Below, piece after piece: positions 3,844-44,725 of a stretch of DNA of 64,000 nucleotides (positions are counted from its first letter, which is position 1; each line of letters opens with the position of its first letter). Origin of the DNA: an uncultured Clostridia bacterium (GTDB lineage: Bacteria; Bacillota; Clostridia; Christensenellales; Borkfalkiaceae). Position numbers and translations under genes: made by a program. Under the pieces are notes generated by a model. It searched no databases and had not been told where the DNA came from. It was given only the letters and a program-made list of their open reading frames with translations. Location of the stretch: assembly GCA_947625865.1 (NCBI GenBank), contig CANQQD010000002.1, positions 39,457 through 103,456 of the forward strand, written 5' to 3'.

Positions 3844-4085
3844 TTAAGTACCACATTATTGCAACTAAATACAAGGCACGCTATTTTTATGCCCTTTTTG
3901 GGGTATAGTTTTTTAATAGTGTTAATAATTTATCAAGCTGAATACGGCATTGTGTATCTCTGCTTGAAATTATTAACAGCATTTTCGTGCTTTTAGTTGC
4001 AATTGGTGTGGTAACCGTAAGAGATACCGTGCGGTGTGCTCTTTCGGGAGCACACCTTATTTTTTTACCGCACAAAGGAGATACT
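3844..4085 (+). promoter_or_regulatory. long structured 5-prime leader with intrinsic terminator (candidate cis-regulatory RNA, class unknown)
   Basis: A 12-bp perfect long-range helix (ATTGCAACTAAA 3858-3869 with TTTAGTTGCAAT 3992-4003) encloses a 16-bp bulged hairpin (3921-3938 / 3962-3977). This is followed by the terminator GGTGTGCTC / GAGCACACC (4033-4056) plus TTATTTTTTT, immediately before the RBS AAAGGAG and ATG 4086. Confidence 0.45.
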
Positions 4086-6686
4086 ATGAAGAAAAAACTG
4101 TTGATTTTGTTTTTGACTGTGGTTGCGGCTTTATGCTGTGCAGCTATGTTTTCTGCCTGCAATGTTGAAAATTCGGGCGGCAACGGCGGCACGACCAACC
4201 AAACACAGCAGGGCGGCGGCAACCAAACTCCCGGTGGAAGTCAAACCGAAACGCCCGACGGCGGTGGTAGCTCCACTACTCCCGGCGAAAACAACCCTAC
4301 TCCCACTCCGCCTGAGCATACCCACGAATTTTCCAATGTATGGAGTTCGGACGATACCACTCATTGGCACGCGGCAACCTGCGGTCATACCGATAAGCAG
4401 GACGAGGCGCCCCATACATATGTAAACGGCGTATGCTCTACCTGCAATCACGCCCATGAAAACCATAATTACGGCAATTACACTGCGGACGACAGCAATC
4501 ATACGCATACTTGCACCGTTTGCAAAAAGTCGGAAAGCGCGCCCCATACATATGTAAACGGCGTATGCTCTACCTGCAATCACGCCCACGAAGACCATAA
4601 TTTTGATAATTGGGTAGACAAAAAACAACCAAATTGCACGGAAGACGGCTATAAAGAACACACCTGTTCCGTTTGCGGCAAAACCGAACAACAGCCGCTT
4701 ACTCATTCGGGACACAACTATCAAAACGGCGTTTGCCAAACATGCGGCGATGTGCAGGGATATATCGCGTTTAAAAATTTACAGTTGAACGACGACACTG
4801 CTTATGGCAAAGTTCCCGCAAACACCGAGTATTTTTCGTTCATTGACGAAATTCTCTATGCGGACGGCGTAACTTACGACGTATATACAAGCCGCGATTG
4901 CAAACCTGAAAGTGAAATCCCCAGCGCAACACCCGAACTTGAATTTGGTGATAACGCCTTTTATATCCTCACCCGCAAGGGGAACGACCGCAAGCTCTAC
5001 ACCGTTACAGTCCGCCGCCGCCCCGTGTATACAGTTAATTTTGTTACGGACGGAAGCGCAGTAGATTCTCAGAGTGTTGAAGAAGACCAAAATATCGTTC
5101 AGCCCGCCGCGACAGAAAAAACGGGCTACACCTTTCAAAATTGGACTTTGAACGGAAACGTTGTAACATTCCCCTATTTGGTAGAAGAAGAAATACCGCA
5201 GACGAGTAATTATACTGTCAATTTAAATGCCGTATTTGCGGCAAACGGTTACACGGTCACGCTAAATGCGGCGGGCGGCGACCTCACTGAAAACGAACAG
5301 CCCGTTACTTTTGACGAAAGCTACAACTTCCCCGTTCCCACGCGCACGGGCTATACTTTCCTCGGCTGGTTTGAGGGTGAAAACCAATTTACCAACGCCG
5401 AGGGTGCAAGTCTTGAAAATTGGACGGGCACGACCGATACTACCTTATACGCAAAGTGGCAGGTAAATCAGTATACGGTAACCTTAAATAAAAATTTAAG
5501 TGCGGGCGGCTCGGTTTCCGGCGGCGGCGACTATGCCTATGACAGCCAAGTAACCATAACGGCAAGTACAAACAACGGATATACCTTTGTAGGTTGGTAT
5601 AAGGAAACAGAACAAGTTTCCACCGAATTATCTTATCAGTTTAAAATGGGCTTAGACGTAACATATACGGCAAAGTGGCAAATGCTTCCGGAAATGGAAA
5701 ACTTTGACTTTACTTCTACAACAACTACTTGCTCGGTTTCGGGAATAAAAGATAAAACTGTTAAAGAGATTATAGTTCCCGATTATGTAACCGAAATTAA
5801 ATCGGGTACATTCAAGGGCTGTTCTAAAGTTGAAAGTATAACTTTGCCGTTTGTAGGTGGAAGTATAAAAACGAAATATTATACCTATCAATATCCGTTC
5901 GGTTATATTTTTGGCACATCAAGTTATGAGAGTGCGTCTGCGGTTAAACAAAATTATTACGGAAACAGTACAAGTTCAACTACCAATTCCACCTATTATA
6001 TCCCCAATTCGTTAAAAACCGTAACTATAACGGGTGGCAATATATTGTACGGTGCGTTCGATAATTGCACAAGTCTTACAAGTATAACAATACCTGAAAA
6101 GGTTACTTCTATCGGCGATAGTGCGTTCTCTGGTTGCAAAAACCTTAAAAGCATAACCATACCGAACAGTGTTAATTCTATCGGCGAGTGGGCGTTCTAT
6201 GGTTGCACAAGCCTTACAAGTATAACGATACCCGACAGCGTGACTTCTATCGGCGGCTGTGCGTTCTATAAATGCACAAGCCTTACAAGTATAACGATAC
6301 CCGACAGCGTGACTTCTATCGGTTGGAAGGCGTTCTATAATTGCACAAGCCTTACAAGTATAACGATACCCGACAGCGTGACTTCTATCGGTCGGCAGGC
6401 GTTCGATGGTTGTACAAGCCTTGAAAGCGTAACCATACCAGACAGCGTTACTTCTATCGGCGATTATGCGTTCGATGGTTGCACAAGCCTTGCTACTGTG
6501 TACTATGGCGGTAACAAAACACAATGGAACCGCATTTCAAATAGCTATTATAACCATGAGTTAGAAAACGCTACGCGCTACTATTTCAGCGAAACTGAGC
6601 CCGATGAGGCAAAGTGGGCAGAAAGTAAAAATTGGTGGCACTATGACCCCGTCACGGACGAAATTGACATTTGGAAAAAGGACTAA
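4086..6686 (+). CDS. cell-surface lipoprotein with Cys/His-rich repeats, Listeria-Bacteroides-type (GYTFxGW) repeats and BspA-like leucine-rich repeats
   Basis: RBS AAAGGAG plus ATG 4086. Lipoprotein signal MKKKLLILFLTVVAALCCAAMFSAC, then a Gly/Thr/Pro linker and repeated HTYVNGVCSTCNH units. GYTFQNW, GYTFLGW and GYTFVGW repeats follow, then a C-terminal array of 23-aa LTSITIPDSVTSIG..AF..C.S repeats. The track start at 3987 lies inside the leader. Confidence 0.85.
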   Translation: MKKKLLILFLTVVAALCCAAMFSACNVENSGGNGGTTNQTQQGGGNQTPGGSQTETPDGGGSSTTPGENNPTPTPPEHTHEFSNVWSSDDTTHWHAATCGHTDKQDEAPHTYVNGVCSTCNHAHENHNYGNYTADDSNHTHTCTVCKKSESAPHTYVNGVCSTCNHAHEDHNFDNWVDKKQPNCTEDGYKEHTCSVCGKTEQQPLTHSGHNYQNGVCQTCGDVQGYIAFKNLQLNDDTAYGKVPANTEYFSFIDEILYADGVTYDVYTSRDCKPESEIPSATPELEFGDNAFYILTRKGNDRKLYTVTVRRRPVYTVNFVTDGSAVDSQSVEEDQNIVQPAATEKTGYTFQNWTLNGNVVTFPYLVEEEIPQTSNYTVNLNAVFAANGYTVTLNAAGGDLTENEQPVTFDESYNFPVPTRTGYTFLGWFEGENQFTNAEGASLENWTGTTDTTLYAKWQVNQYTVTLNKNLSAGGSVSGGGDYAYDSQVTITASTNNGYTFVGWYKETEQVSTELSYQFKMGLDVTYTAKWQMLPEMENFDFTSTTTTCSVSGIKDKTVKEIIVPDYVTEIKSGTFKGCSKVESITLPFVGGSIKTKYYTYQYPFGYIFGTSSYESASAVKQNYYGNSTSSTTNSTYYIPNSLKTVTITGGNILYGAFDNCTSLTSITIPEKVTSIGDSAFSGCKNLKSITIPNSVNSIGEWAFYGCTSLTSITIPDSVTSIGGCAFYKCTSLTSITIPDSVTSIGWKAFYNCTSLTSITIPDSVTSIGRQAFDGCTSLESVTIPDSVTSIGDYAFDGCTSLATVYYGGNKTQWNRISNSYYNHELENATRYYFSETEPDEAKWAESKNWWHYDPVTDEIDIWKKD
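4407..4588 (+). repeat. 132-bp-period duplication inside the lipoprotein gene (50-nt identical core)
   Basis: GCGCCCCATACATATGTAAACGGCGTATGCTCTACCTGCAATCACGCCCA occurs at 4407 and again at 4539. Confidence 0.85.
6205..6411 (+). repeat. three near-identical 69-bp tandem repeats encoding LRR units
   Basis: GCACAAGCCTTACAAGTATAACGATACCCGACAGCGTGACTTCTATCGG starts at 6205, 6274 and 6343. Flanking units are more diverged. Confidence 0.9.
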
Positions 6687-8465: not shown

Positions 8466-8690
8466 ATGCTTATGGGACTTCTCTATACCTTTTTGACCTT
8501 TTTGATTTGTTTTATTCTTGTGTGCGCCGTCAAACTTATTTATTTGGGGCTGCTTTCGCTCAAAAAGCCGCCCGAGCCCGAAAAAAAGCCCGAGCCTGAA
8601 AAGAAGCCCGAGCCTGTTTATTACATAGTTGAAAGAAAGCGCACGAAAAAGAAGTATTCAAACCCGCAGGAGTTCGAATTTAAAAAGTAA
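8466..8690 (+). CDS. small single-pass membrane protein with PEPEKK repeats and a Lys-rich tail
   Basis: Hydrophobic N-terminus LLYTFLTFLICFILVCAVKLIYLGLL, then three PEPEKK units encoded by 18-bp tandem repeats (8571-8616). The RBS is weak, and a TATAAT at 8454-8459 would make the mRNA nearly leaderless. Confidence 0.4.
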   Translation: MLMGLLYTFLTFLICFILVCAVKLIYLGLLSLKKPPEPEKKPEPEKKPEPVYYIVERKRTKKKYSNPQEFEFKK

Positions 8691-8728: not shown

Positions 8729-9079
8729 CTATTCCTCATAGCGGACAAGGTTTTGACCGTCCTCCCAAAGGCGCTCCAGATTATAAAAATCGCGCTCCTC
8801 GTCGCCGAAAATGTGGACTATCACGTCGGCATAGTCCAATACAGCCCAGCGGCCCTCGCGGATGCCCTCCACCCTGCGGGGCGTGAGATCGTGCTCCTTG
8901 CCGAGCTTTTCCTCGAGATATTCGGCAAGAGATTTTACCTGTGTTTTGGACGACCCGCCGCAGATAACAAAGTAATCGCAGATTGAGGTTTTGTCCTCGA
9001 CGGCAAGATACACTATGCCCTTTGCCTTCCTCGATGAGAGAGTTTTGCAGATGAGTTGAGTTTTTTCGAGACTTGTCAT
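8729..9079 (-). CDS. rsfS: ribosomal silencing factor RsfS
   Basis: 116 aa with an Iojap/RsfS pattern (DYFVICGGSS..Q..A, WAVLDYADVIVHIF, FYNLERLW). It sits downstream of nadD-yqeK, as in other Bacillota. Confidence 0.9.
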   Translation of the reverse strand: MTSLEKTQLICKTLSSRKAKGIVYLAVEDKTSICDYFVICGGSSKTQVKSLAEYLEEKLGKEHDLTPRRVEGIREGRWAVLDYADVIVHIFGDEERDFYNLERLWEDGQNLVRYEE

Positions 9080-9090
9080 AATTTTCCCCC

Positions 9091-10218
9091 TTAATGTTGT
9101 TCTTTTAAATATTCGTATGCCCGCCTCGTCAATGAGTAGACGGGCTTATTTTGCTTTTCAAGATAGGCGAGCTGATGCTCCAACGCCGCAAAAAGGCACT
9201 CGTCCATGTCCCTTGCAAAGAGCTTGCGGAGGCGTTCCACCCCCTCGAAATCCCTGCCCTCCTCCAAAAGGTCGGCAAGAAATATGAGCTTTTCGAGGTT
9301 GCCCATGTTCTCCCTGCCGCTCGTGTGGTAGCGGATAGCGTTCAACACGTATTTATCGGTGATCCCGAACGTGTGCTCCGCGACGTATGCGCCCGTGTAC
9401 TGGTGCATGACGGGTGCGGGAACGCCCGCGGGAAATTCAAAGCCCTTCAGCTCGGGCGAGCTTTCGCCGAGGTACTTTGCACAGTCGTGCAGAGCGGCTG
9501 CCGTGATTGCGTCGTATTCGAATACGTTTGCCCGCGGCGCATACCTTGCGGCGAGCAGTGCGACCCCGACGGTGTGGCGCCAGCGCTCCTCCGTCAGGAG
9601 CTTTTTGACCCCCCAGACCTCGGGAATTGCGTATATTTTGCGGGAACGTATTAAGTTTTTGACCTCTTCGGGCACATATGGCGATATGTCCTCGCCGATG
9701 GCGGCAAGTGTTCTGACGCGCGTGGAGCTGACGGCTTTGCCCACATAGCCGAATGAGACGATGTCGCTTTTAAAGCGCGAGGAAAAGGCTTTTAGTCCGG
9801 TTTTCAGTTCCTCTGAGGCTTCGCGGGCGCAGACGAGCGGAGTGGCGCACTTTAAAATCTCCTCGGGCTCCCTCCAACTGTCAAAGCTTTTGAGCATGTC
9901 CGAGCCCATTATAAAATATATTTCGGCTTCGGGATAGAGCTTTTTGAAGCGGCGGCATGTGACGTATGAATAGCTTATGCCTCCGCGCTTTATTTCGCAG
10001 TCGGAGACCTCGAAGCCATCGCGCTTTTCAAAAGCGAGGCGGCACATCTGCAATCTGTCCCTTGCGCTTGCCATAAGGGAGCCGCTCTTGTGGGGGGAGC
10101 GGTTGGTGGGAACGACTATGACCTCGTCCAGCCCCAGTTCGCGCTTTGCAGCAAGAGCCATATTTACGTGTTCGTTGTGGACGGGATTGAACGCCCCGCC
10201 GTAGATAGCGATTTTCAT
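9091..10218 (-). CDS. nadD: fusion of nicotinate-nucleotide adenylyltransferase (NadD) and YqeK-type HD phosphohydrolase
   Basis: N-terminus MKIAIYGGAFNPVHNEHV (nucleotidyltransferase H-x-x-H). The C-terminal half has HD-domain motifs (RWRHTVGVA, ALHDCAKY, IRYHTSG) in one uninterrupted 375-aa frame. Confidence 0.88.
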   Translation of the reverse strand: MKIAIYGGAFNPVHNEHVNMALAAKRELGLDEVIVVPTNRSPHKSGSLMASARDRLQMCRLAFEKRDGFEVSDCEIKRGGISYSYVTCRRFKKLYPEAEIYFIMGSDMLKSFDSWREPEEILKCATPLVCAREASEELKTGLKAFSSRFKSDIVSFGYVGKAVSSTRVRTLAAIGEDISPYVPEEVKNLIRSRKIYAIPEVWGVKKLLTEERWRHTVGVALLAARYAPRANVFEYDAITAAALHDCAKYLGESSPELKGFEFPAGVPAPVMHQYTGAYVAEHTFGITDKYVLNAIRYHTSGRENMGNLEKLIFLADLLEEGRDFEGVERLRKLFARDMDECLFAALEHQLAYLEKQNKPVYSLTRRAYEYLKEQH

Positions 10219-10256
10219 ATAGTATAAATTCCCGCCTTAAGGGCAATAACAAAGGC

Positions 10257-11003
10257 ATGAAAAGATTGAATTTACCCCTCGTTCTCGACACCGTTTTTGT
10301 GGGGATATGTGCCTTTTTACTGTTTTTTACCGCCGTCAGATTTTACACGAAAAGCGTTGCGGCAGCTCTCGTTTTCGGATTTACGGCGCTCCTTTTATTC
10401 GGTGCGCTCGCCTATGTTTACATAAGCGGAAAACAGAATAAAAAGCTGCTTTTGTCGCGCGACGAAAAGAATAAAAAGTTGCTCGCGCTGCACCTCTCCC
10501 TCTCCTCTGACGGATATATCAGGCGGCTTTTCAAGAGCCTTTTGGGCGAGGACGCAAAAATAAGCGGGCGGAAGGTCGTTTTAAATGACACGGCAAGCTT
10601 CTTCTGTTTTAAGATGGAGCCGCTCACCGAGGACGACGTGGCGCAGGTGATAAAGTATCGCTATGAAGGGAAAAAGCGGATATACTGCGCTAAAAGCTCC
10701 CGCGAAGCGGCCGCCCTTGCCGCAAATTTCCTCATCGAAATCGTGGGCATCGACAGCGTTTATTCCTCGCTCAAGGAGAAGGGGCTGCTGCCCGAAAAAT
10801 ATGTTTACGAGGGCGCGGAAAAGACAGGATTTTTTAAAAAGGTGAAGTCGCGCTTCAACCGCAGGCTCGCCGCGCCTCTTTTCTGGTCGGGGATAGGGCT
10901 TATGGCTTTGAGCTATTTCACTTTTTTCCCCGTGTATTATATTGTGAGCGGTTCCCTGCTGCTTATTCTTTCGGCAGTTTCGCTGGTGACGGCTCAAAGA
11001 TAA
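10257..11003 (+). CDS. hypothetical membrane protein (2 N-terminal and 2 C-terminal TM segments around a soluble core)
   Basis: Hydrophobicity pattern only; no family recognised. Its 3-prime end overlaps the yhbY 3-prime end by 10 nt in convergent orientation. Confidence 0.6.
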   Translation: MKRLNLPLVLDTVFVGICAFLLFFTAVRFYTKSVAAALVFGFTALLLFGALAYVYISGKQNKKLLLSRDEKNKKLLALHLSLSSDGYIRRLFKSLLGEDAKISGRKVVLNDTASFFCFKMEPLTEDDVAQVIKYRYEGKKRIYCAKSSREAAALAANFLIEIVGIDSVYSSLKEKGLLPEKYVYEGAEKTGFFKKVKSRFNRRLAAPLFWSGIGLMALSYFTFFPVYYIVSGSLLLILSAVSLVTAQR

Positions 11004-11287
11004 ATGTGCTCTACGTCCTTTCGTGAGGACCGTCTGTACAGCACCGCCTTTCTGCCTATTACGATAACGCACTCGGCGTTCAGCTTTTCGGCGAGCGACC
11101 TGCCGATTTCGCTGGGGTCGCCGTCGGCGTTTTCAAGTATGCTTATTTTTATGAGCTCCCGCTTTTCAAGACAGTCGGAAAAGCCGTCGAGCATATTTTC
11201 GCCTATGCCCTCCTTGCCCACCTGACCGACGGGCGAGAGATTTGCGGCAAGGCTTTTTAATTTTGCACGTTGCCTGGATGTAAGCAT
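10994..11287 (-). CDS. yhbY: YhbY/CRM-domain RNA-binding protein
   Basis: 97 aa, LTSRQRAKLKSLA..L.PV.QVGKEGI.EN pattern typical of YhbY/YqeI. Confidence 0.85.
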   Translation of the reverse strand: MLTSRQRAKLKSLAANLSPVGQVGKEGIGENMLDGFSDCLEKRELIKISILENADGDPSEIGRSLAEKLNAECVIVIGRKAVLYRRSSRKDVEHIYL

Positions 11288-11306: not shown

Positions 11307-12584
11307 TTACGGCACGAAGTCGAATTCCACTTCGCCTATTTCTACCGTATCGCCCTCCTTTAATCCCATTTTTATAAGCTCGGAAATTACTCCCTTTTCC
11401 CTCAGTATTTTCTGAAAATACGCCATGGAATCGGGATCGGATAAAACCACGTTGCGGCAGAGCATGTCGACGAGAGTGCCAACCACAACGTAAACGCCGC
11501 CGTCGACGTAGATCTCAAAGCCCAGATCGCCGCTTTTTCTGTATGTGAAGCTCTTGTCGCTCTCCACCCTCTGCACGGGCGGAAGCTTTTCAAGCTCCCC
11601 GAATATGCCCTTCACAAGTTCCTCGAGCCCTCCGCCGTCGACTGCGGAGATTTTGAATATTTTGTATTTTTTACCGTACTTTTTTATAAACGCCCCTGCA
11701 TTTTCCTCTGCGCCGCAGATATCGCATTTGTTCAGGGCTATTATCTGCGGGCGCGAGGCGAGAGCCTGTGAATAGTTTTTGAGTTCGGCGTTGATTTTTT
11801 TAAAGTCGTCTGCGGGATCCCTGCCCTCTATTCCCGAGACGTCTACAACGTGCAAAAGCATGCGCGTGCGTTCGATATGTCTCAAAAAATCGTGCCCGAG
11901 TCCCGCGCCGTCAGCCGCGCCCTCTATGAGCCCGGGGATATCCGCAGCCACAAAGGAATTATCGTAATATCTGACTACGCCGAGATTGGGGGACAGGGTA
12001 GTGAAATGATAGTTTGCTATTTTTGGCTTTGCCGCAGAGATCTTGGAAAGAATTGTAGACTTGCCAACGTTCGGAAAGCCTATGATGCCCACGTCGGCTA
12101 TGACCTTCAGCTCCAAAATCAAGGTGTGCGGCTCGGTTTTTTCGCCCTTCTGGGCAAAATTGGGAGCATGCCTGCGCGAGGTGGTGAAGCGGACGTTTCC
12201 CTTGCCGCCCCTGCCGCCCTCGGCTATGAGCTTTTTATCGCCGTCGGAGAACATGTCGCAAATTATCGCGCCGGTAGCCTCGTCGCGCACGATCGTACCG
12301 ACGGGGACTTTTATTATCACGTCCTCGCCGTATTTCCCGAAGCACTTATTTGATCCGCCGCGCTCGCCGTTGCCCGCAACGTATTTCGAAACGTAGCGGA
12401 ACGGGAGCAGATCGTTGACGGAGGCGTCTGCCTGAACGTATATGTTTCCGCCGTCGCCGCCGTCGCCGCCGTCCGGTCCGCAGGCGGGCTTGCCCTTGTA
12501 GGACTTGAAGGAATTCATGCCGTCCCCGCCGTCGCCGGATTTAATTGTGATCCTGACCTTGTCTGTAAAAAGCTTATCTGCCAT
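11307..12584 (-). CDS. obg: GTPase Obg
   Basis: Gly-rich Obg fold (SGDGGDG, GGDGGDGG), G domain GFPNVGKST and NKCD, C-terminal TGS-like/OCT domain. Confidence 0.95.
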   Translation of the reverse strand: MADKLFTDKVRITIKSGDGGDGMNSFKSYKGKPACGPDGGDGGDGGNIYVQADASVNDLLPFRYVSKYVAGNGERGGSNKCFGKYGEDVIIKVPVGTIVRDEATGAIICDMFSDGDKKLIAEGGRGGKGNVRFTTSRRHAPNFAQKGEKTEPHTLILELKVIADVGIIGFPNVGKSTILSKISAAKPKIANYHFTTLSPNLGVVRYYDNSFVAADIPGLIEGAADGAGLGHDFLRHIERTRMLLHVVDVSGIEGRDPADDFKKINAELKNYSQALASRPQIIALNKCDICGAEENAGAFIKKYGKKYKIFKISAVDGGGLEELVKGIFGELEKLPPVQRVESDKSFTYRKSGDLGFEIYVDGGVYVVVGTLVDMLCRNVVLSDPDSMAYFQKILREKGVISELIKMGLKEGDTVEIGEVEFDFVP

Positions 12585-13857
12585 TTGATATGATCTCCGC
12601 GTTATCGGCGGTGTTTTTAAAAATATTCAATACTTCCACGTCGCTTTTTTTACGCAGCGACCCGACAATTTTAAGCTCCTCCGCGGATTGCAGATATTCC
12701 CTGCCGAGCGTAAAGGAATTTTGGATATCTATGGGGGCGGAGCCGTCCGAAATGACGAGACGCATATTCGCCGCGCTCAACAGCGCCGCGGAATTTTCAG
12801 ACCCATACTCCCCTGCGGCGTTGACAAAGCCTATTACCGTGAGGGAGCCTCCCTCCTCTGCGTTTATCGCCGATGACAAAATATGAAGCGCCGCCTCGCC
12901 GAGAGCCGAGAAGCCGCAGATCATAAGGACGGCGTTCCTGCCGCACTCTGCCATACGGGCACAGTATTGGGATACGAGTTCCGCAGCCCTTGCGTTTTCC
13001 TCCGCGACCGCCGAAAGGGAGGTGGAAAATACTTCTGCTCCCCTTACCGAACGCCGTATATCGGTGATCTCCTCGGGATAGCCGCCGACAAGAAGAATGA
13101 CGGCTTGTGCGCTTTCGTTGAGGCATATTGCCGAGGCAATCTGCTTTATCATCGAAATTTTGCCGAAGCTTGCGGGGGCGGAAATTACCGCGCGCTGACC
13201 GTACCCAAGGGGTGCGAACATATCCGACATGCGGGCGCATATATCGTTATCCCCGCCGCCCAGACAGATGCGGACGCAGGGATAGACGGGCGTCAGGCCT
13301 GCAATCTCCCTGCGGGGAAGGGCGTCGGGGCTGAAGCCGTTTACGGAGGCGATTGCATGCAGAGCCGCGCCGCTTACCGCGCGGCGGCAGACGCCGCCGA
13401 TTTTATCGCCTGACCTCAGACCGAACCTGTTTATTACAGTTTCCGCGACATAGATATCGTCGGGACACGGAAAACAACCGTTCACCCGAAGATAGGCATA
13501 TTTGCCCGTCCTGTCGAGTATTCCGGAGCAGGACTGTTCTGAGTCGTCTGATACTGAATAGCTCTGCTCAATAGGCGCCTCGCCTGCGTGGCAGGCGCCG
13601 AAAAATCTGATACATTCGCGTATATCCGTGACGAGCGCCTCGTCGAAATCGTTGGACTTGGGCGGCGCGCCGCGCGCCGAACGGGGCGCAGGCTGAGCCT
13701 TACACGAGGCTATGGCGATTATTTTATCTATTATGCAATCCTTCTTGCCGTCCGTGGGGCTGTGCACGCCAACAGCGCGGGCTATAAGGCGCACCTCGTG
13801 AATGGACTTTTTGTGCAGCCGTTCACGGATATCGGCAAGCATTGTTTCGCCCGCCAT
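12574..13857 (-). CDS. Rho-like protein with degenerate ATPase motifs
   Basis: Collinear by eye with Rho: an N-terminal Rho_N-like helix pair, DDIYVAETVINRFGLRSGDKIGG (Rho RNA-binding OB), PLGYGQRAVISAP and EEGGSLTVIGF. The P-loop reads APASFGKIS, DERPEE is replaced by GGYPEE, and LLDSITRLARA by MICGFSALGEA. Confidence 0.8.
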   Translation of the reverse strand: MAGETMLADIRERLHKKSIHEVRLIARAVGVHSPTDGKKDCIIDKIIAIASCKAQPAPRSARGAPPKSNDFDEALVTDIRECIRFFGACHAGEAPIEQSYSVSDDSEQSCSGILDRTGKYAYLRVNGCFPCPDDIYVAETVINRFGLRSGDKIGGVCRRAVSGAALHAIASVNGFSPDALPRREIAGLTPVYPCVRICLGGGDNDICARMSDMFAPLGYGQRAVISAPASFGKISMIKQIASAICLNESAQAVILLVGGYPEEITDIRRSVRGAEVFSTSLSAVAEENARAAELVSQYCARMAECGRNAVLMICGFSALGEAALHILSSAINAEEGGSLTVIGFVNAAGEYGSENSAALLSAANMRLVISDGSAPIDIQNSFTLGREYLQSAEELKIVGSLRKKSDVEVLNIFKNTADNAEIISNGR

Positions 13858-13858
13858 T

Positions 13859-14503
13859 CTATGCCCTCCTGAGAACTATTACCCGCGTTTCGCCTGTAAG
13901 ATCGCTGCGGGATAGCTCTATTTCGTCCGAATCGGTCTCGTGCACCTGCTCCTCGTCGAACAGGTCCAGAAATCCGTTGACCTTTTCAATGTCTATTTTG
14001 CAGTCTTTGGAGCGGTAGTGCATTGGAATAACGACCTCGGGCATCAACCTGTCTACATACTCCTTTGCCGTTTCGGCGTCTATCGTATAGTTGCCGCCGA
14101 CGGGGATCAGAAGCACGTCCACGGGCAAAATCAGCTCGAGAAGTTCAGCCGAGCACGCTTCGCCCAGATCGCCGAGATGACATATGTCTATGCCGTCCAT
14201 GCGGAATTTGAAAATCACGTTTTCGCCACGCTTTTTCCCGCGGACGTTGTCGTGAAAGCTCTTTACCGCGTTTATTTCCACGCCCGGAAGGTCGTAGCTG
14301 TCCTCCTTGTCTATAATGCGCGGCGCGCCGCCCACAGCCTTTATATAGTCGTGGTCGAAGTGGTGATGGGATATAGTGACCGCGTCCGCCGTTACGCGCG
14401 GCATCGTATAGCCCACCTCGGGCGCATACGGATCGGTGACGACCGACGTGCCCGTGCTCTCCGTGAGCTTGAAAGAGGAATGTCCGAGATACTGAATTTT
14501 CAT
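13859..14503 (-). CDS. metallo-beta-lactamase-fold hydrolase (UPF0173-like)
   Basis: Start MKIQYLGHSSF with RBS AAGGAGAATATATG; HHHFDH metal motif. The track ORF to 14806 adds an Arg-rich 101-aa extension that overlaps the upstream gene, so it is rejected. Confidence 0.85.
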   Translation of the reverse strand: MKIQYLGHSSFKLTESTGTSVVTDPYAPEVGYTMPRVTADAVTISHHHFDHDYIKAVGGAPRIIDKEDSYDLPGVEINAVKSFHDNVRGKKRGENVIFKFRMDGIDICHLGDLGEACSAELLELILPVDVLLIPVGGNYTIDAETAKEYVDRLMPEVVIPMHYRSKDCKIDIEKVNGFLDLFDEEQVHETDSDEIELSRSDLTGETRVIVLRRA

Positions 14504-14877
14504 ATATTCTCCTTGGGGTATATGGCGGCGGAAAGCCTTAAATTTATTTTTGCTCCGCCGAGAAAATAATCTATGTACACATCCACGCCCGCCTCGCTTT
14601 TTCTTATGACGAGCGCCTCGGTTCTGACGGGTATGCTGCCTGTCAGTTCGCCCGAAAGCAGCATACATACTGTATTTTTGCCCTTTGCAAAGGTTATATC
14701 CATATCGACTTCGCCGCGGCGGCTCTGCGTTACCGTTCCGCCTGCCGCAACGAGCGAGCACCTGTCTTCGCCTATAAAATATTTCAGTTCGAAGCCGCTT
14801 CCGCAAAACCGCAGCTCGCCGTCGGAATGGACCGCGCCGGAGTCATTTGAGCCGTAAATTGTGACCTTGCAGTTCAT
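14500..14877 (-). CDS. DUF1934 (YwiB-like) small beta-barrel protein
   Basis: RBS AAAGGAGGACATATG, 125 aa. The stop overlaps the start of the next gene (ATGA at 14500-14503). The family assignment is by general resemblance only. Confidence 0.55.
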   Translation of the reverse strand: MNCKVTIYGSNDSGAVHSDGELRFCGSGFELKYFIGEDRCSLVAAGGTVTQSRRGEVDMDITFAKGKNTVCMLLSGELTGSIPVRTEALVIRKSEAGVDVYIDYFLGGAKINLRLSAAIYPKENI

Positions 14878-14897: not shown

Positions 14898-15752
14898 TTA
14901 TTTTAAATCTGTGACCGTAATATCGCCCCAAAGCGTGCGTTCTTCGCGGCGGGACTCGAAGAGCCGCCTGCCCTCGCGGAGCACGTTTTCGAGTTCCTCC
15001 CTGTTTCCTCCGGCTATCGCGCGGCGGATCTCGTCAAGGGAGCTTATGAGCGAGGAGATGTCCTCTGTAAGGTTTTCGGCGTTTTTGAGATAGAGAGACG
15101 ACCAAACGCTCTCGTCGACGCCCGCGATCCTCGTCATATCCTGAAAACTGCCGCCTGTAAAGCCTATGCAGCCGTCCAACTCGGAATTCTTGACATAAGC
15201 GTTGGAAACTATGTGCGCGAGCTGCGAGGTATAGGCAATTTTTTTGTCGTGCGTGTCGGACGTGCACTCTACTATTCTTGCGAAGCCCATTTTTTTTGTA
15301 AGCTCGGCAATTACCTTTACCGCCCTGTCGTCCGTTTCGCCCGAATAGGTTATTATCATGCTTGCGTTGTCAAAGAGGTCGGCGGACGCGTTATAGATAG
15401 TGGAGACCTCCTTGCCCGCCATAGGATGGCAGCCTACGTAGCGGAAGTTGCGGGGGATCTTATATATTTCTTCCTCTATCCACCCCTTTACGCCGCAGAT
15501 ATCGGCGACTATGGAGCCGTCTTTAAACGTGTGGGAATTTATAAACTCTATGGTGGCTTCGGGCGGGAGCGCCACAAAAACGACGTCAAAAGAGACAAAG
15601 TCGCGGGCAAAGCCGTCTATGACGCCGCTTCTTAAGGCGTAGTCGGTTATTTTTTCGGAACGGTTCCAGCCCCACACATGCTGCCCCGCGCGCTTCAAAG
15701 CCATACAAATAGAGCCGCCTATTAATCCCAGACCCGCAACGCAAATATCCAT
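14898..15752 (-). CDS. tyrA: prephenate dehydrogenase
   Basis: MDICVAGLGLIGGS Rossmann start, HPMAG motif. Internal start chosen at 15752. Confidence 0.85.
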   Translation of the reverse strand: MDICVAGLGLIGGSICMALKRAGQHVWGWNRSEKITDYALRSGVIDGFARDFVSFDVVFVALPPEATIEFINSHTFKDGSIVADICGVKGWIEEEIYKIPRNFRYVGCHPMAGKEVSTIYNASADLFDNASMIITYSGETDDRAVKVIAELTKKMGFARIVECTSDTHDKKIAYTSQLAHIVSNAYVKNSELDGCIGFTGGSFQDMTRIAGVDESVWSSLYLKNAENLTEDISSLISSLDEIRRAIAGGNREELENVLREGRRLFESRREERTLWGDITVTDLK

Positions 15753-15890
15753 ACGCTCTTCCCACAAATAATTATTTACAGAATTATAGCATATCCGACC
15801 GTAAAATTCAATAATTTTACAATAAAAAAAGCGGACTGCAGGCAATATTTGTACGGCTGCACTTATATGCCACATTTTGATTTGATTTGT

Positions 15891-43688: not shown

Positions 43689-44687
43689 TCAGTCGTCCTC
43701 GTCGTCGGACGAAGCGGCTATATATTTGTCGAGTACCTTTTTGCCTATCCTGGTGCCGACGCCGAGTATGCGCTCCTTCATGGTTCTGTGCTGCTTCTCC
43801 TCTATGCTGCCCTCGAACTTCAGATCGCGGCAAGGGTCGAAAACAACATAACCGCACTCCGCGGCATAGGCAAACACGCTCTTCAATATGCCCTCGATCA
43901 GGGGTCTGTCGGCTTCGGGACAGTTTTCGACAATATTCATGAGCATTGCGGGCTTTATTGCGTTTATGTATTTATCACCGAGCGCAGGGACCAAAGTGTT
44001 GTCTATGAGCGCGCCGATGGGCTCATAGTGCTTTTTTGCCACCCGCGCCTTTGCGCCCTTGACGGGTTCGCCCGTGGTTATAAGTTTGTACCACTCCAGA
44101 ATTACCGTTGTGAAACGGCACTTGATCTTTACGGGAGAGAGCAGCCACCGCGCAAACTTGATCATGCCGCCGAAAAACATCGGGATAAGCTGTATTATCA
44201 TAACGATTACGGAGAGCACTATAAGCGTAACGTCAATCGCAAAATCAAGCTTGCCGCCGCTGCCCGAGGAGGCAATGGCTATTGCTGAAATGGAAATGGC
44301 TATGGAAAGAAGCTTTACCAGCAGCCTGATTATTTTCAGGGTCAGCGAAAACCTTTTCAGGCTCTTTGTCGTAGCCCGCAGGCTGAGGACAAAGAAAATC
44401 ACAAGAAGCACCGCCATAAAAATATAGGTGCCGATTATTATGTAGGTCGCCAACCCCGCGCCAAACGAAACGGTTTTGCTGAGCGTTCTGTAAAGCATGA
44501 ACGTCGTATACAGAAGTGTAAAAATCATGCTTATGGAGAGGGTTACGACGTTTATCCTGCGCGAGATAACGGCACGGTTAGCATAGGCGTTTTTTATAAA
44601 CGTGCGCATGTCGAACACGTCCTTGGCGAGGGTAAACGTCTCCTCGGCGGAAATTGTATGGCGTATTTTTTTATCCTGTTCATCCAT
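43689..44687 (-). CDS. hypothetical membrane protein with acidic C-terminus
   Basis: Start MDEQDKK behind GAGGTGG. Four or more TM segments, then a soluble C-terminal domain ending SSDDEDD. No family recognised. Confidence 0.6.
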   Translation of the reverse strand: MDEQDKKIRHTISAEETFTLAKDVFDMRTFIKNAYANRAVISRRINVVTLSISMIFTLLYTTFMLYRTLSKTVSFGAGLATYIIIGTYIFMAVLLVIFFVLSLRATTKSLKRFSLTLKIIRLLVKLLSIAISISAIAIASSGSGGKLDFAIDVTLIVLSVIVMIIQLIPMFFGGMIKFARWLLSPVKIKCRFTTVILEWYKLITTGEPVKGAKARVAKKHYEPIGALIDNTLVPALGDKYINAIKPAMLMNIVENCPEADRPLIEGILKSVFAYAAECGYVVFDPCRDLKFEGSIEEKQHRTMKERILGVGTRIGKKVLDKYIAASSDDEDD

Positions 44688-44725
44688 GATCCACCTCACG
44701 CTGCGCAAGCTGCACCGCTAACAGA

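Follow-up and report, generated by a model that had tools for sequence, protein, structure and literature searches.

An obg-linked rho orthologue with a degenerate motor in uncultured gut Christensenellales

The locus

Rho is regarded as an obligate ATP-driven RNA translocase. The window analysed here, a 64,000-nucleotide stretch of an uncultured Clostridia genome (GenBank assembly GCA_947625865.1, contig CANQQD010000002.1, positions 39,457 to 103,456), encodes a Rho-like protein whose motor motifs have degenerated. The list of open reading frames (ORFs) in the window contains this gene as a minus-strand ORF at 12574..13857 with a product of 427 amino acids (aa), lying between a gene for a metallo-beta-lactamase (MBL)-fold hydrolase and obg. 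A preliminary description, made from the letters alone, had read it as a full-length Rho paralogue with a degenerate ATPase and a missing Q-loop, translationally coupled to obg. The features of the gene and its two direct neighbours are listed below, with the evidence in brackets; HMM stands for hidden Markov model, AF2 for AlphaFold 2 and pLDDT for its predicted local distance difference test.

12574..13857, minus strand: rho-derived gene, 427 aa, motor degenerate (ORF; Rho HMM and PDB matches; AF2 and Foldseek; slot of intact rho in relatives)
13579..13857, minus strand: N-terminal helical domain, aa 1-93 (AF2 helices 2-16, 19-29, 39-50 and 73-93)
13654..13674, minus strand: RGAPPKS motif, aa 62-68, in a low-confidence loop (alignment; AF2 pLDDT about 57)
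13327..13539, minus strand: OB-fold primary RNA-binding domain, aa 107-177, with KYAYLR and DDIYV (Pfam PF07497; table of primary-site residues)
13153..13179, minus strand: Walker A remnant APASFGKIS, aa 227-235 (alignments)
13069..13086, minus strand: GGYPEE, aa 258-263 (alignments)
12910..12930, minus strand: Walker B remnant VLMICGF, aa 310-316 (alignments)
12886..12906, minus strand: Q-loop deletion junction ALG/EAAL, aa 318-324, about 23 residues gone (alignments)
12802..12822, minus strand: shortened R-loop region NAAGEYG, aa 346-352 (residue table)
12697..12720, minus strand: Arg-finger region NSFTLGRE, aa 380-387 (alignments)
12574..12584, minus strand: overlap of the rho-like stop with the obg start, 11 nt (ORF coordinates)
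11307..12584, minus strand: obg (GTPase Obg/CgtA), 425 aa (Pfam GTP1_OBG, MMR_HSR1 and DUF1967)
13859..14503, minus strand: MBL-fold hydrolase, Lactamase_B_3 (Pfam; conserved position)

Homology to Rho and predicted fold

HMM searches gave significant Rho-family matches. Pfam Rho_RNA_bind (PF07497) matched aa 111-177 (6e-12; 45.6 bits against a cut-off of 27), which bears out the OB-type RNA-binding segment of the preliminary description, and Pfam ATP-synt_ab matched aa 210-305 (2.3e-7). The Rho_N-like start proposed there fared less evenly: AF2 predicts N-terminal helices and the NCBIfam alignment begins at profile position 4, but Pfam Rho_N was not detected in the 427-aa product at E<=1. The NCBIfam Rho models aligned the query only at profile positions 4-270, and the cut-off was reached neither for NF006886 (158.8 bits against 315) nor for TIGR00767 (156.3 bits against 509.45).

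The best solved relatives were the Rho proteins of M. tuberculosis (7oqh, 3e-35) and E. coli (5.5e-28). An AF2 model built from 30 family sequences had a mean pLDDT of 88.5 and a predicted template modelling (pTM) score of 0.72. The top 50 Foldseek matches in the PDB were all Rho, with template modelling (TM) scores of up to 0.81 and a root mean square deviation of 2.6-2.8 Å over about 355 residues. Taken together, the HMM matches, the model and the Foldseek search show that the product is Rho-like along its whole length, as had been proposed, including the C-terminal third that the HMMs leave unaligned. The retained architecture consists of the N-terminal helical domain with RGAPPKS, the OB-fold primary site, a RecA-type core and the C-terminal helices.

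Motor motifs and RNA-binding residues

Motif positions were taken from HMMER and MAFFT alignments, which agreed, and are given in E. coli Rho numbering unless the query is named. The Walker A motif reads APASFGKIS instead of PPKAGKT. Its Gly and Lys (K233 of the query) are retained, Thr185 is replaced by Ile, and the segment does not match GxxxxGK[ST]; close relatives carry GKIS, NKIS, SKIS, SKIP or GKTA. GGYPEE stands in place of DERPEE, so that Glu211 and Arg212, the Arg valve, are replaced by Gly-Tyr. At Walker B, MICGF replaces LLDSI and Asp265 has become Cys314 of the query, a site that is also variable in close relatives (CG, GS, PG). A gap of 23 residues, corresponding to E. coli positions ~273-295, takes out the entire Q-loop (278-290), close to the loss of about 20 residues noted at first. 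Two further losses had escaped the preliminary description: the R-loop (322-326) is shortened and has no equivalent of Lys326 (NAAG--EYG), and the Arg-finger position R366 is a Leu (SFTLGRE), with an Arg two residues downstream. No alternative alignment gave back an intact GK[ST], the catalytic Glu or the Walker B Asp. The degenerate motor of the preliminary description is confirmed and was, if anything, described too cautiously.

Other parts of the protein are better preserved. The core retains GQR, PEE and EEGGSLT. In the primary RNA-binding site, the equivalents of Phe62, Phe64, Arg66, Asp78 and Tyr80 are Y, Y, R, D and Y; KYAYLR corresponds to GFGFLR, DDIYV is identical, and the equivalents of Glu108 and Tyr110 are lost. 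From these residues we infer that the query protein can probably still bind RNA. Judging by its motifs, it would neither hydrolyse ATP nor close its ring on RNA via the Q- and R-loops, and so it would not translocate and would not carry out classical Rho-dependent termination. Clearly, this is a Rho by descent and fold, yet it scores below the curated family thresholds and has none of the catalytic motifs intact.

The gene is a positional orthologue of rho

A search of 5.8 billion proteins returned about 65 full-length relatives, followed by canonical Rhos. Every degenerate relative that was placed in a genome (L001-L004, 26 species-representative metagenome-assembled genomes (MAGs), L093 and L094) showed the same gene order: pgk / tyrA - DUF1934 - MBL-fold - rho-like - obg - yhbY - (membrane protein, opposite strand) - nadD-HD - rsfS. 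In 31 of the 32 related loci that were looked at, the MBL-fold gene directly precedes the rho or rho-like gene. The nearest intact Rhos (474-491 aa) have PPKAGKT, DERPEE, LMDS, full Q- and R-loops and R366, and all four of those looked up (P0060/L085, P0063/L092, P0039/L096 and P0049/L097) fill the same slot between the MBL-fold gene and obg. Intact and degenerate obg-linked Rhos also have the N-terminus I(H/Y)xLRQI(G/A)RAVGV...[RK]GAPPKS in common. Since the slot is shared with 4/4 intact relatives and the degenerate forms nest as one group in a tree of the neighbouring genes (bootstrap 100; see below), the gene is a positional orthologue of rho and not a duplicate placed elsewhere. The word paralogue in the preliminary description should therefore be dropped: this is the vertically inherited rho orthologue of an uncultured gut Christensenellales lineage. 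Horizontal transfer was considered and rejected, as the GC content of the gene and that of its third codon positions (GC3) match the neighbouring genes and synteny is conserved.

The TAA stop of the rho-like gene and the ATG of obg share 11 nt, with the common letters AATGGCAGATAA. Across 33 loci, the rho/obg junction was at -11, -8 or -1 nt in 16, and in 15 more the genes were <=10 nt apart; the intact rho of L092 also overlaps obg by 11 nt (-11). The coupling to obg described at first is thus real as an overlap but ancestral, and it says nothing specific about the degenerate form. A linkage to obg peculiar to the degenerate form was accordingly rejected, given that intact Rhos share both slot and overlap.

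Two observations concern this linkage. The C-terminal ...NG(R) (window 12577-12603, aa 419-427) is conserved across the query's own clade, and in the 8- and 11-nt overlaps its codons coincide with the embedded obg start (AAT GGC AGA TAA / ATG GCA GAT); part of the NG(R) conservation may come from the overlapping obg frame. In a MAG labelled Christensenellaceae (L060, 5461-7170), a 569-aa intact Rho has a long R/E/A-rich insertion with KRKRGRPS, which is AT-hook-like. This rho does not adjoin obg, so the linkage is not universal in records with the Christensenellaceae name.

Extent of the family

Genome contigs were scanned with a pattern aimed at the degenerate family, [NC][AF][EA]EGGSLT[VI], outside of which the typical canonical Rhos of the alignment (N[IV]EEGGSLT) fall. 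The 26 species-representative MAGs with the degenerate form belong to Christensenellales/Borkfalkiaceae and come from animal guts (rabbit, mouse and others), and all keep the linkage to obg. Taxon names are those in the sequence records, where these MAGs are labelled uncultured Clostridia, Christensenella, Christensenellaceae or Candidatus Borkfalkiaceae; GTDB puts Borkfalkiaceae in Christensenellales (PMC8035907). The nearest relative of the window organism was the rabbit-gut MAG Lapin-027__bin72 (L029), with 91% identity in Obg and 68% in the Rho-like protein. In a profile search of 1.84 billion representatives at 50% identity, about 55 of the 84 best matches were degenerate clusters. Their Walker A remnants are highly varied (e.g. 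ISAEADPTE, TPAGVRGLP, APENTAPGN), the pattern expected of an unconstrained former active site.

Stepwise, nested loss of the motor

We built a neighbour-joining tree with 200 bootstraps from the neighbouring Obg, YhbY and NadD and read it together with the motif table. All degenerate forms fell into one clade (bootstrap 100), with the intact L085, L092, L096 and L097 outside. On one branch within this clade, the Q-loop is 4 residues shorter and both Glu211 and R366 have gone. In the Q-loop-deleted clade (bootstrap 100), 13-23 residues are gone, the R-loop is shorter by 5 and R366 is lost, with GK[ST] and Asp265 mostly retained. Nested in the latter is the query sub-clade (WIN, L029 and L008; bootstrap 99), which has further lost Glu211/Arg212 (GGY), Asp265 (Cys) and the Walker A Gly/Thr. 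P0005, inside this sub-clade, still has GKT and has already lost Asp265, which indicates that catalytic residues were lost first and that the P-loop drifted afterwards. Over the tree as a whole, the first step was loss of the catalytic Glu and the Arg finger with erosion of the Q- and R-loops, the second complete deletion of the Q-loop, and the third, in the query sub-clade, loss at Walker A and B. The NF006886 scores form a series from 481-493 bits in intact forms through 309, 296, 279, 227 and 211 to 159 in the query, with the cut-off at 315.

Two groups of sequences lie beside this series. The obg-linked L094 (P0043, 6001-7371) has Val in place of Glu211, a Q-loop shorter by 6 residues and no R-loop. 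It groups with the intact Rhos at a bootstrap of only 60, a weakly supported placement, and the same decay may have begun independently in it. P0221 and P0226 (474-475 aa) have a full Q-loop, Glu211, Arg212 and Asp265, but a wrecked Walker A (TSPIADAGA and VSPKTDTAL) and no GAPPK. Their motifs suggest motor-dead Rhos outside the lineage, or another order of loss.

Selection and the RGAPPKS motif

Across relatives, identity to the window proteins was 79-91% for Obg, 78-90% for YhbY and 74-93% for RsfS, and 32-68% for the Rho-like protein. In multiple alignments, pairs with an Obg identity of 0.75-0.85 were 0.61-0.76 identical in Rho when intact and 0.35-0.36 when degenerate. For the same Obg divergence, degenerate Rho has changed about twice as fast as the intact form. 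Against the 96%-identical metagenomic allele P0001 (L095), dN/dS was 0.155 (dS 0.12), and it was 0.09-0.17 in four other pairs divergent enough to estimate; values for obg were 0.02-0.05. The rho-like gene is under purifying selection, 2-5 times weaker than that on obg.

Mean pairwise identity was 0.55 in degenerate versus 0.58 in intact forms for the N-terminal domain, 0.42 versus 0.72 for the OB domain and 0.45-0.50 versus 0.82-0.90 for the RecA core. Relaxation is thus domain-specific, and only the N-terminal domain is as conserved as in intact relatives. None of the 18 substitutions between the window protein and P0001 falls in aa 1-96. Alignment A1 (30 sequences, about 50% mean identity) has 28 invariant columns, including R62-K67 (RGAPPK), GQR, P261-E262, T340 and N364 in 30/30 sequences; S68 is nearly invariant. 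Most intact obg-linked Rhos also carry RGAPPK, or KGAPPK in four, and RGAPPKS as a neofunctionalisation of the degenerate form was rejected on these grounds. By its conservation, RGAPPKS appears to be a lineage-wide short linear motif, and its predicted position in a low-confidence loop would fit such a motif. The motif goes unmentioned in a 2024 survey of Rho diversity (PMC11347177).

The motif or a variant of it was noted in P0039-P0063, P0069, P0071 and P0073. Other clostridial Rho groups have the variants KRGAPPKI and KTGAPPKI, and one has RRGRPPKP, which is AT-hook-like.

Surrounding genes

The remaining features of the cluster are as follows.

14500..14877, minus strand: DUF1934 small protein, overlapping the MBL start by 4 nt (Pfam)
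14898..15755, minus strand: prephenate dehydrogenase (tyrA-like), first gene of the cluster, exact start uncertain
15783..15811, minus strand: promoter-like TTGAAT-17-TATAAT with TG, 5' of the cluster (consensus match only)
8729..11287, minus strand: block of downstream same-strand genes (yhbY, nadD-HD fusion, rsfS)
10994-11287, minus strand: yhbY
10257-11003, plus strand: conserved 248-aa predicted membrane protein without a Pfam match, between yhbY and nadD
9091-10218, minus strand: nadD-HD fusion, 375 aa
8729-9079, minus strand: rsfS
8586..8615, minus strand: terminator-like hairpin and T-run 3' of rsfS (consensus match only)

An AGGAGG Shine-Dalgarno sequence lies 7-8 nt 5' of the rho-like ATG, within the 3'-terminal part of the MBL-fold gene; the stop of that gene and this ATG are 1 nt apart. 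The order DUF1934-MBL-rho, with its 4-nt overlap and 1-nt spacing, is common to intact and degenerate lineages and suggests a conserved DUF1934-MBL-rho-obg transcription unit. Promoter and terminator counts in the window were no higher than in shuffled sequence, and both sites of the cluster are tentative. Bacillota are terminator-rich in any case, and terminator density is therefore no proxy for the loss of Rho.

The nicotinate-nucleotide adenylyltransferase gene nadD and a yqeK-like HD domain form a single ORF, a fusion kept in all related loci. The opposite-strand membrane-protein gene has the same size and orientation in every related locus with listed genes. Elsewhere in the window, 3987-6686 (plus strand) encodes an 899-aa protein with BspA-type leucine-rich repeats and Listeria-Bacteroides repeats, likely to serve this gut organism at the cell surface or in adhesion; near the L001 locus there is a related leucine-rich repeat gene. 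A 339-aa ORF at 43689-44708 (minus strand) has a weak match to the phage-integrase central domain at the cut-off (27.1 versus 27 bits). The ORF, possibly what remains of a mobile element, has genes for a class II aminoacyl-tRNA synthetase and an ABC-F protein on its two sides.

Discussion

The query can be set against several known systems. With canonical Rho (NF006886/TIGR00767; E. coli, PDB 3ICE/1PV4) it shares the three-domain architecture, the fold, GQR/PEE/EEGGSLT and the C-terminal helices, but it lacks the Walker A Thr, Glu211, Arg212, Asp265, the R-loop Lys, the Arg finger and the Q-loop. Its nearest canonical sequences are the intact obg-linked RGAPPK-type clostridial Rhos (P0039-P0063, 474-491 aa; about 35% full-length identity), which have the same operon slot, N-terminal domain and obg overlap and, unlike the query, retain every motor motif (NF006886, 481-493 bits). 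The short-form or Group B Rho (NF041509, paralog_Rho2) is also an atypical Rho homologue, yet it has no N-terminal domain, retains the catalytic residues and the bicyclomycin pocket, and co-occurs with a full Rho (PMC11347177). The query reverses these traits: its N-terminal domain is present, its catalytic residues are lost, and it sits at the primary rho locus. Its NF041509 score of 144.7 bits is below the cut-off of 628.

The closest functional analogy is with the non-catalytic subunits F1-ATPase alpha and V1 B, of the same ATP-synt_ab superfamily, as pseudo-ATPases retained for structure or regulation. Like them, the family has a RecA-like core, has lost the catalytic Glu and keeps a P-loop in many members. 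The F1 and V1 subunits, however, work only in hetero-hexamers that include a catalytic partner, and the query clade no longer has even an intact P-loop. The 'Rho-like' proteins with Rho_N only (plant RHON1; DUF4912 in Cyanobacteria) likewise have a part-Rho origin or resemblance and no motor activity, but they consist of the N-terminal domain alone (PMC13613805), whereas the query has all three domains as a folded unit.

We consider it probable that the protein is a translocation-incompetent, Rho-derived RNA-binding scaffold encoded by the vertically inherited rho orthologue. The lineage's rho would have stayed between the MBL-fold gene and obg throughout, with the motor lost progressively at that locus. 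What remains would be a scaffold of Rho shape, probably oligomeric, whose retained function would reside chiefly in the RGAPPKS-bearing N-terminal domain and, for the query clade, also in the OB pocket that recognises cytosine. The protein might bind RNA or RNA polymerase passively, act as an RNA chaperone, or have a role connected with the ribosome-assembly genes of its transcription unit. That obg, yhbY and rsfS are transcribed together with it was inherited from intact rho, however, and is therefore not specific evidence for such a role. Several points weigh against the scaffold. OB-pocket residues are not uniformly retained across the degenerate family, so RNA binding may not be its family-wide retained function. 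With the Walker A Lys still present, the protein may bind nucleotide. The tree of decay is a simple neighbour-joining tree of three neighbouring genes, and the tblastn search with E. coli Rho, which matched only the rho-like gene and no second rho, covered the 64 kb of the window.

A second rho bears directly on an alternative that we judge unlikely, namely that an intact rho lies elsewhere and that the present protein is its non-catalytic partner, forming mixed hexamers or regulating them as alpha and B do in F1/V1-ATPases. Many family members do retain GK[ST] without the catalytic Glu and the Arg finger, like F1 alpha, and Moreira et al. 2024 raised hetero-hexamers for two-rho species (PMC11347177). 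The same survey, however, places two-rho genomes mainly in Actinomycetota and the Planctomycetota-Verrucomicrobiota-Chlamydiota (PVC) group, with catalytic residues in the second copies (PMC11347177). The degenerate gene is also in the ancestral rho slot, where all 4 close intact relatives have theirs, no second Rho is encoded in the window, and the repeated, differing wrecks of the P-loop speak against a conserved nucleotide-binding role. It is quite unlikely, too, that the gene is a decaying relic without function at the protein level, its ORF kept open only so that the overlapping obg is expressed or the operon stays intact. Such a relic would fit with a rho-like gene that evolves much faster than all of its neighbours, with the conserved stop/start overlap and with the outright loss of Rho in about 30% of Bacillota (PMC11347177). 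A need for coupling alone would not conserve amino acids, though, and here dN/dS is far under 1 (0.09-0.17), the 26 species-level genomes and the roughly 55 clusters (50% identity) have full-length ORFs free of frameshifts, the AF2 fold is well packed, and the invariant columns of the 30-sequence alignment include RGAPPK and GQR.

That the motifs only look dead, and that the protein is still an ATP-dependent terminator with non-canonical residues, seems to us very improbable. K233 and PEE are retained, TLGRE offers an Arg two residues from the finger position, and M. tuberculosis Rho is described as functional despite poor ATPase activity. The losses nevertheless come jointly: the Walker A Thr, Glu211, Arg212, Asp265, the deleted Q-loop, and the R-loop Lys with the Arg finger, which we tally as six independent requirements. 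Motor positions moreover vary freely among close relatives, as expected without constraint, and no large ATPase-domain deletions were seen in functional Rhos in the 2024 survey (PMC11347177).

Returning to the scaffold, the retention of the gene across the family suggests a useful job of Rho that is independent of the motor. More tentatively, with somewhat less than even confidence, we propose that across a whole family-level clade of gut Clostridia the sole Rho has become a factor independent of ATP, selected for the N-terminal domain with RGAPPKS and for the scaffold.

In 2,730 genomes, Moreira et al. found the ATPase domain highly conserved and without large insertions or deletions, and classed bacteria as having either a functional Rho or, as in about 30% of Bacillota, no Rho domains (PMC11347177). 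The query protein fits none of these categories, and the lineage represents a third state, in which the orthologue is retained and its motor motifs are lost. Here, rho has long been under purifying selection after the loss of the Q-loop, R-loop, Arg finger and catalytic Glu, and later of Walker A and B. We found no description of a naturally motor-dead Rho, or of a function for one, in the literature searched, in agreement with the preliminary description. For annotation, the family serves as a warning that a Rho-family match in abundant gut MAGs need not mean Rho-dependent termination.

The 'tethered-tracking' and the 'allosteric, RNA polymerase-bound' models of Rho are still debated. The graded natural series at one locus, from intact to motor-dead, lets functions of Rho that are independent of translocation be asked about, and RGAPPKS in clostridial Rho N-termini is a candidate interaction site. 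If the proposed explanation is true, the lineage would be a natural separation-of-function experiment, in which Rho has a selectable role without its motor, for example in passive binding of RNA or RNA polymerase or in a connection with ribosome assembly by way of the obg operon.

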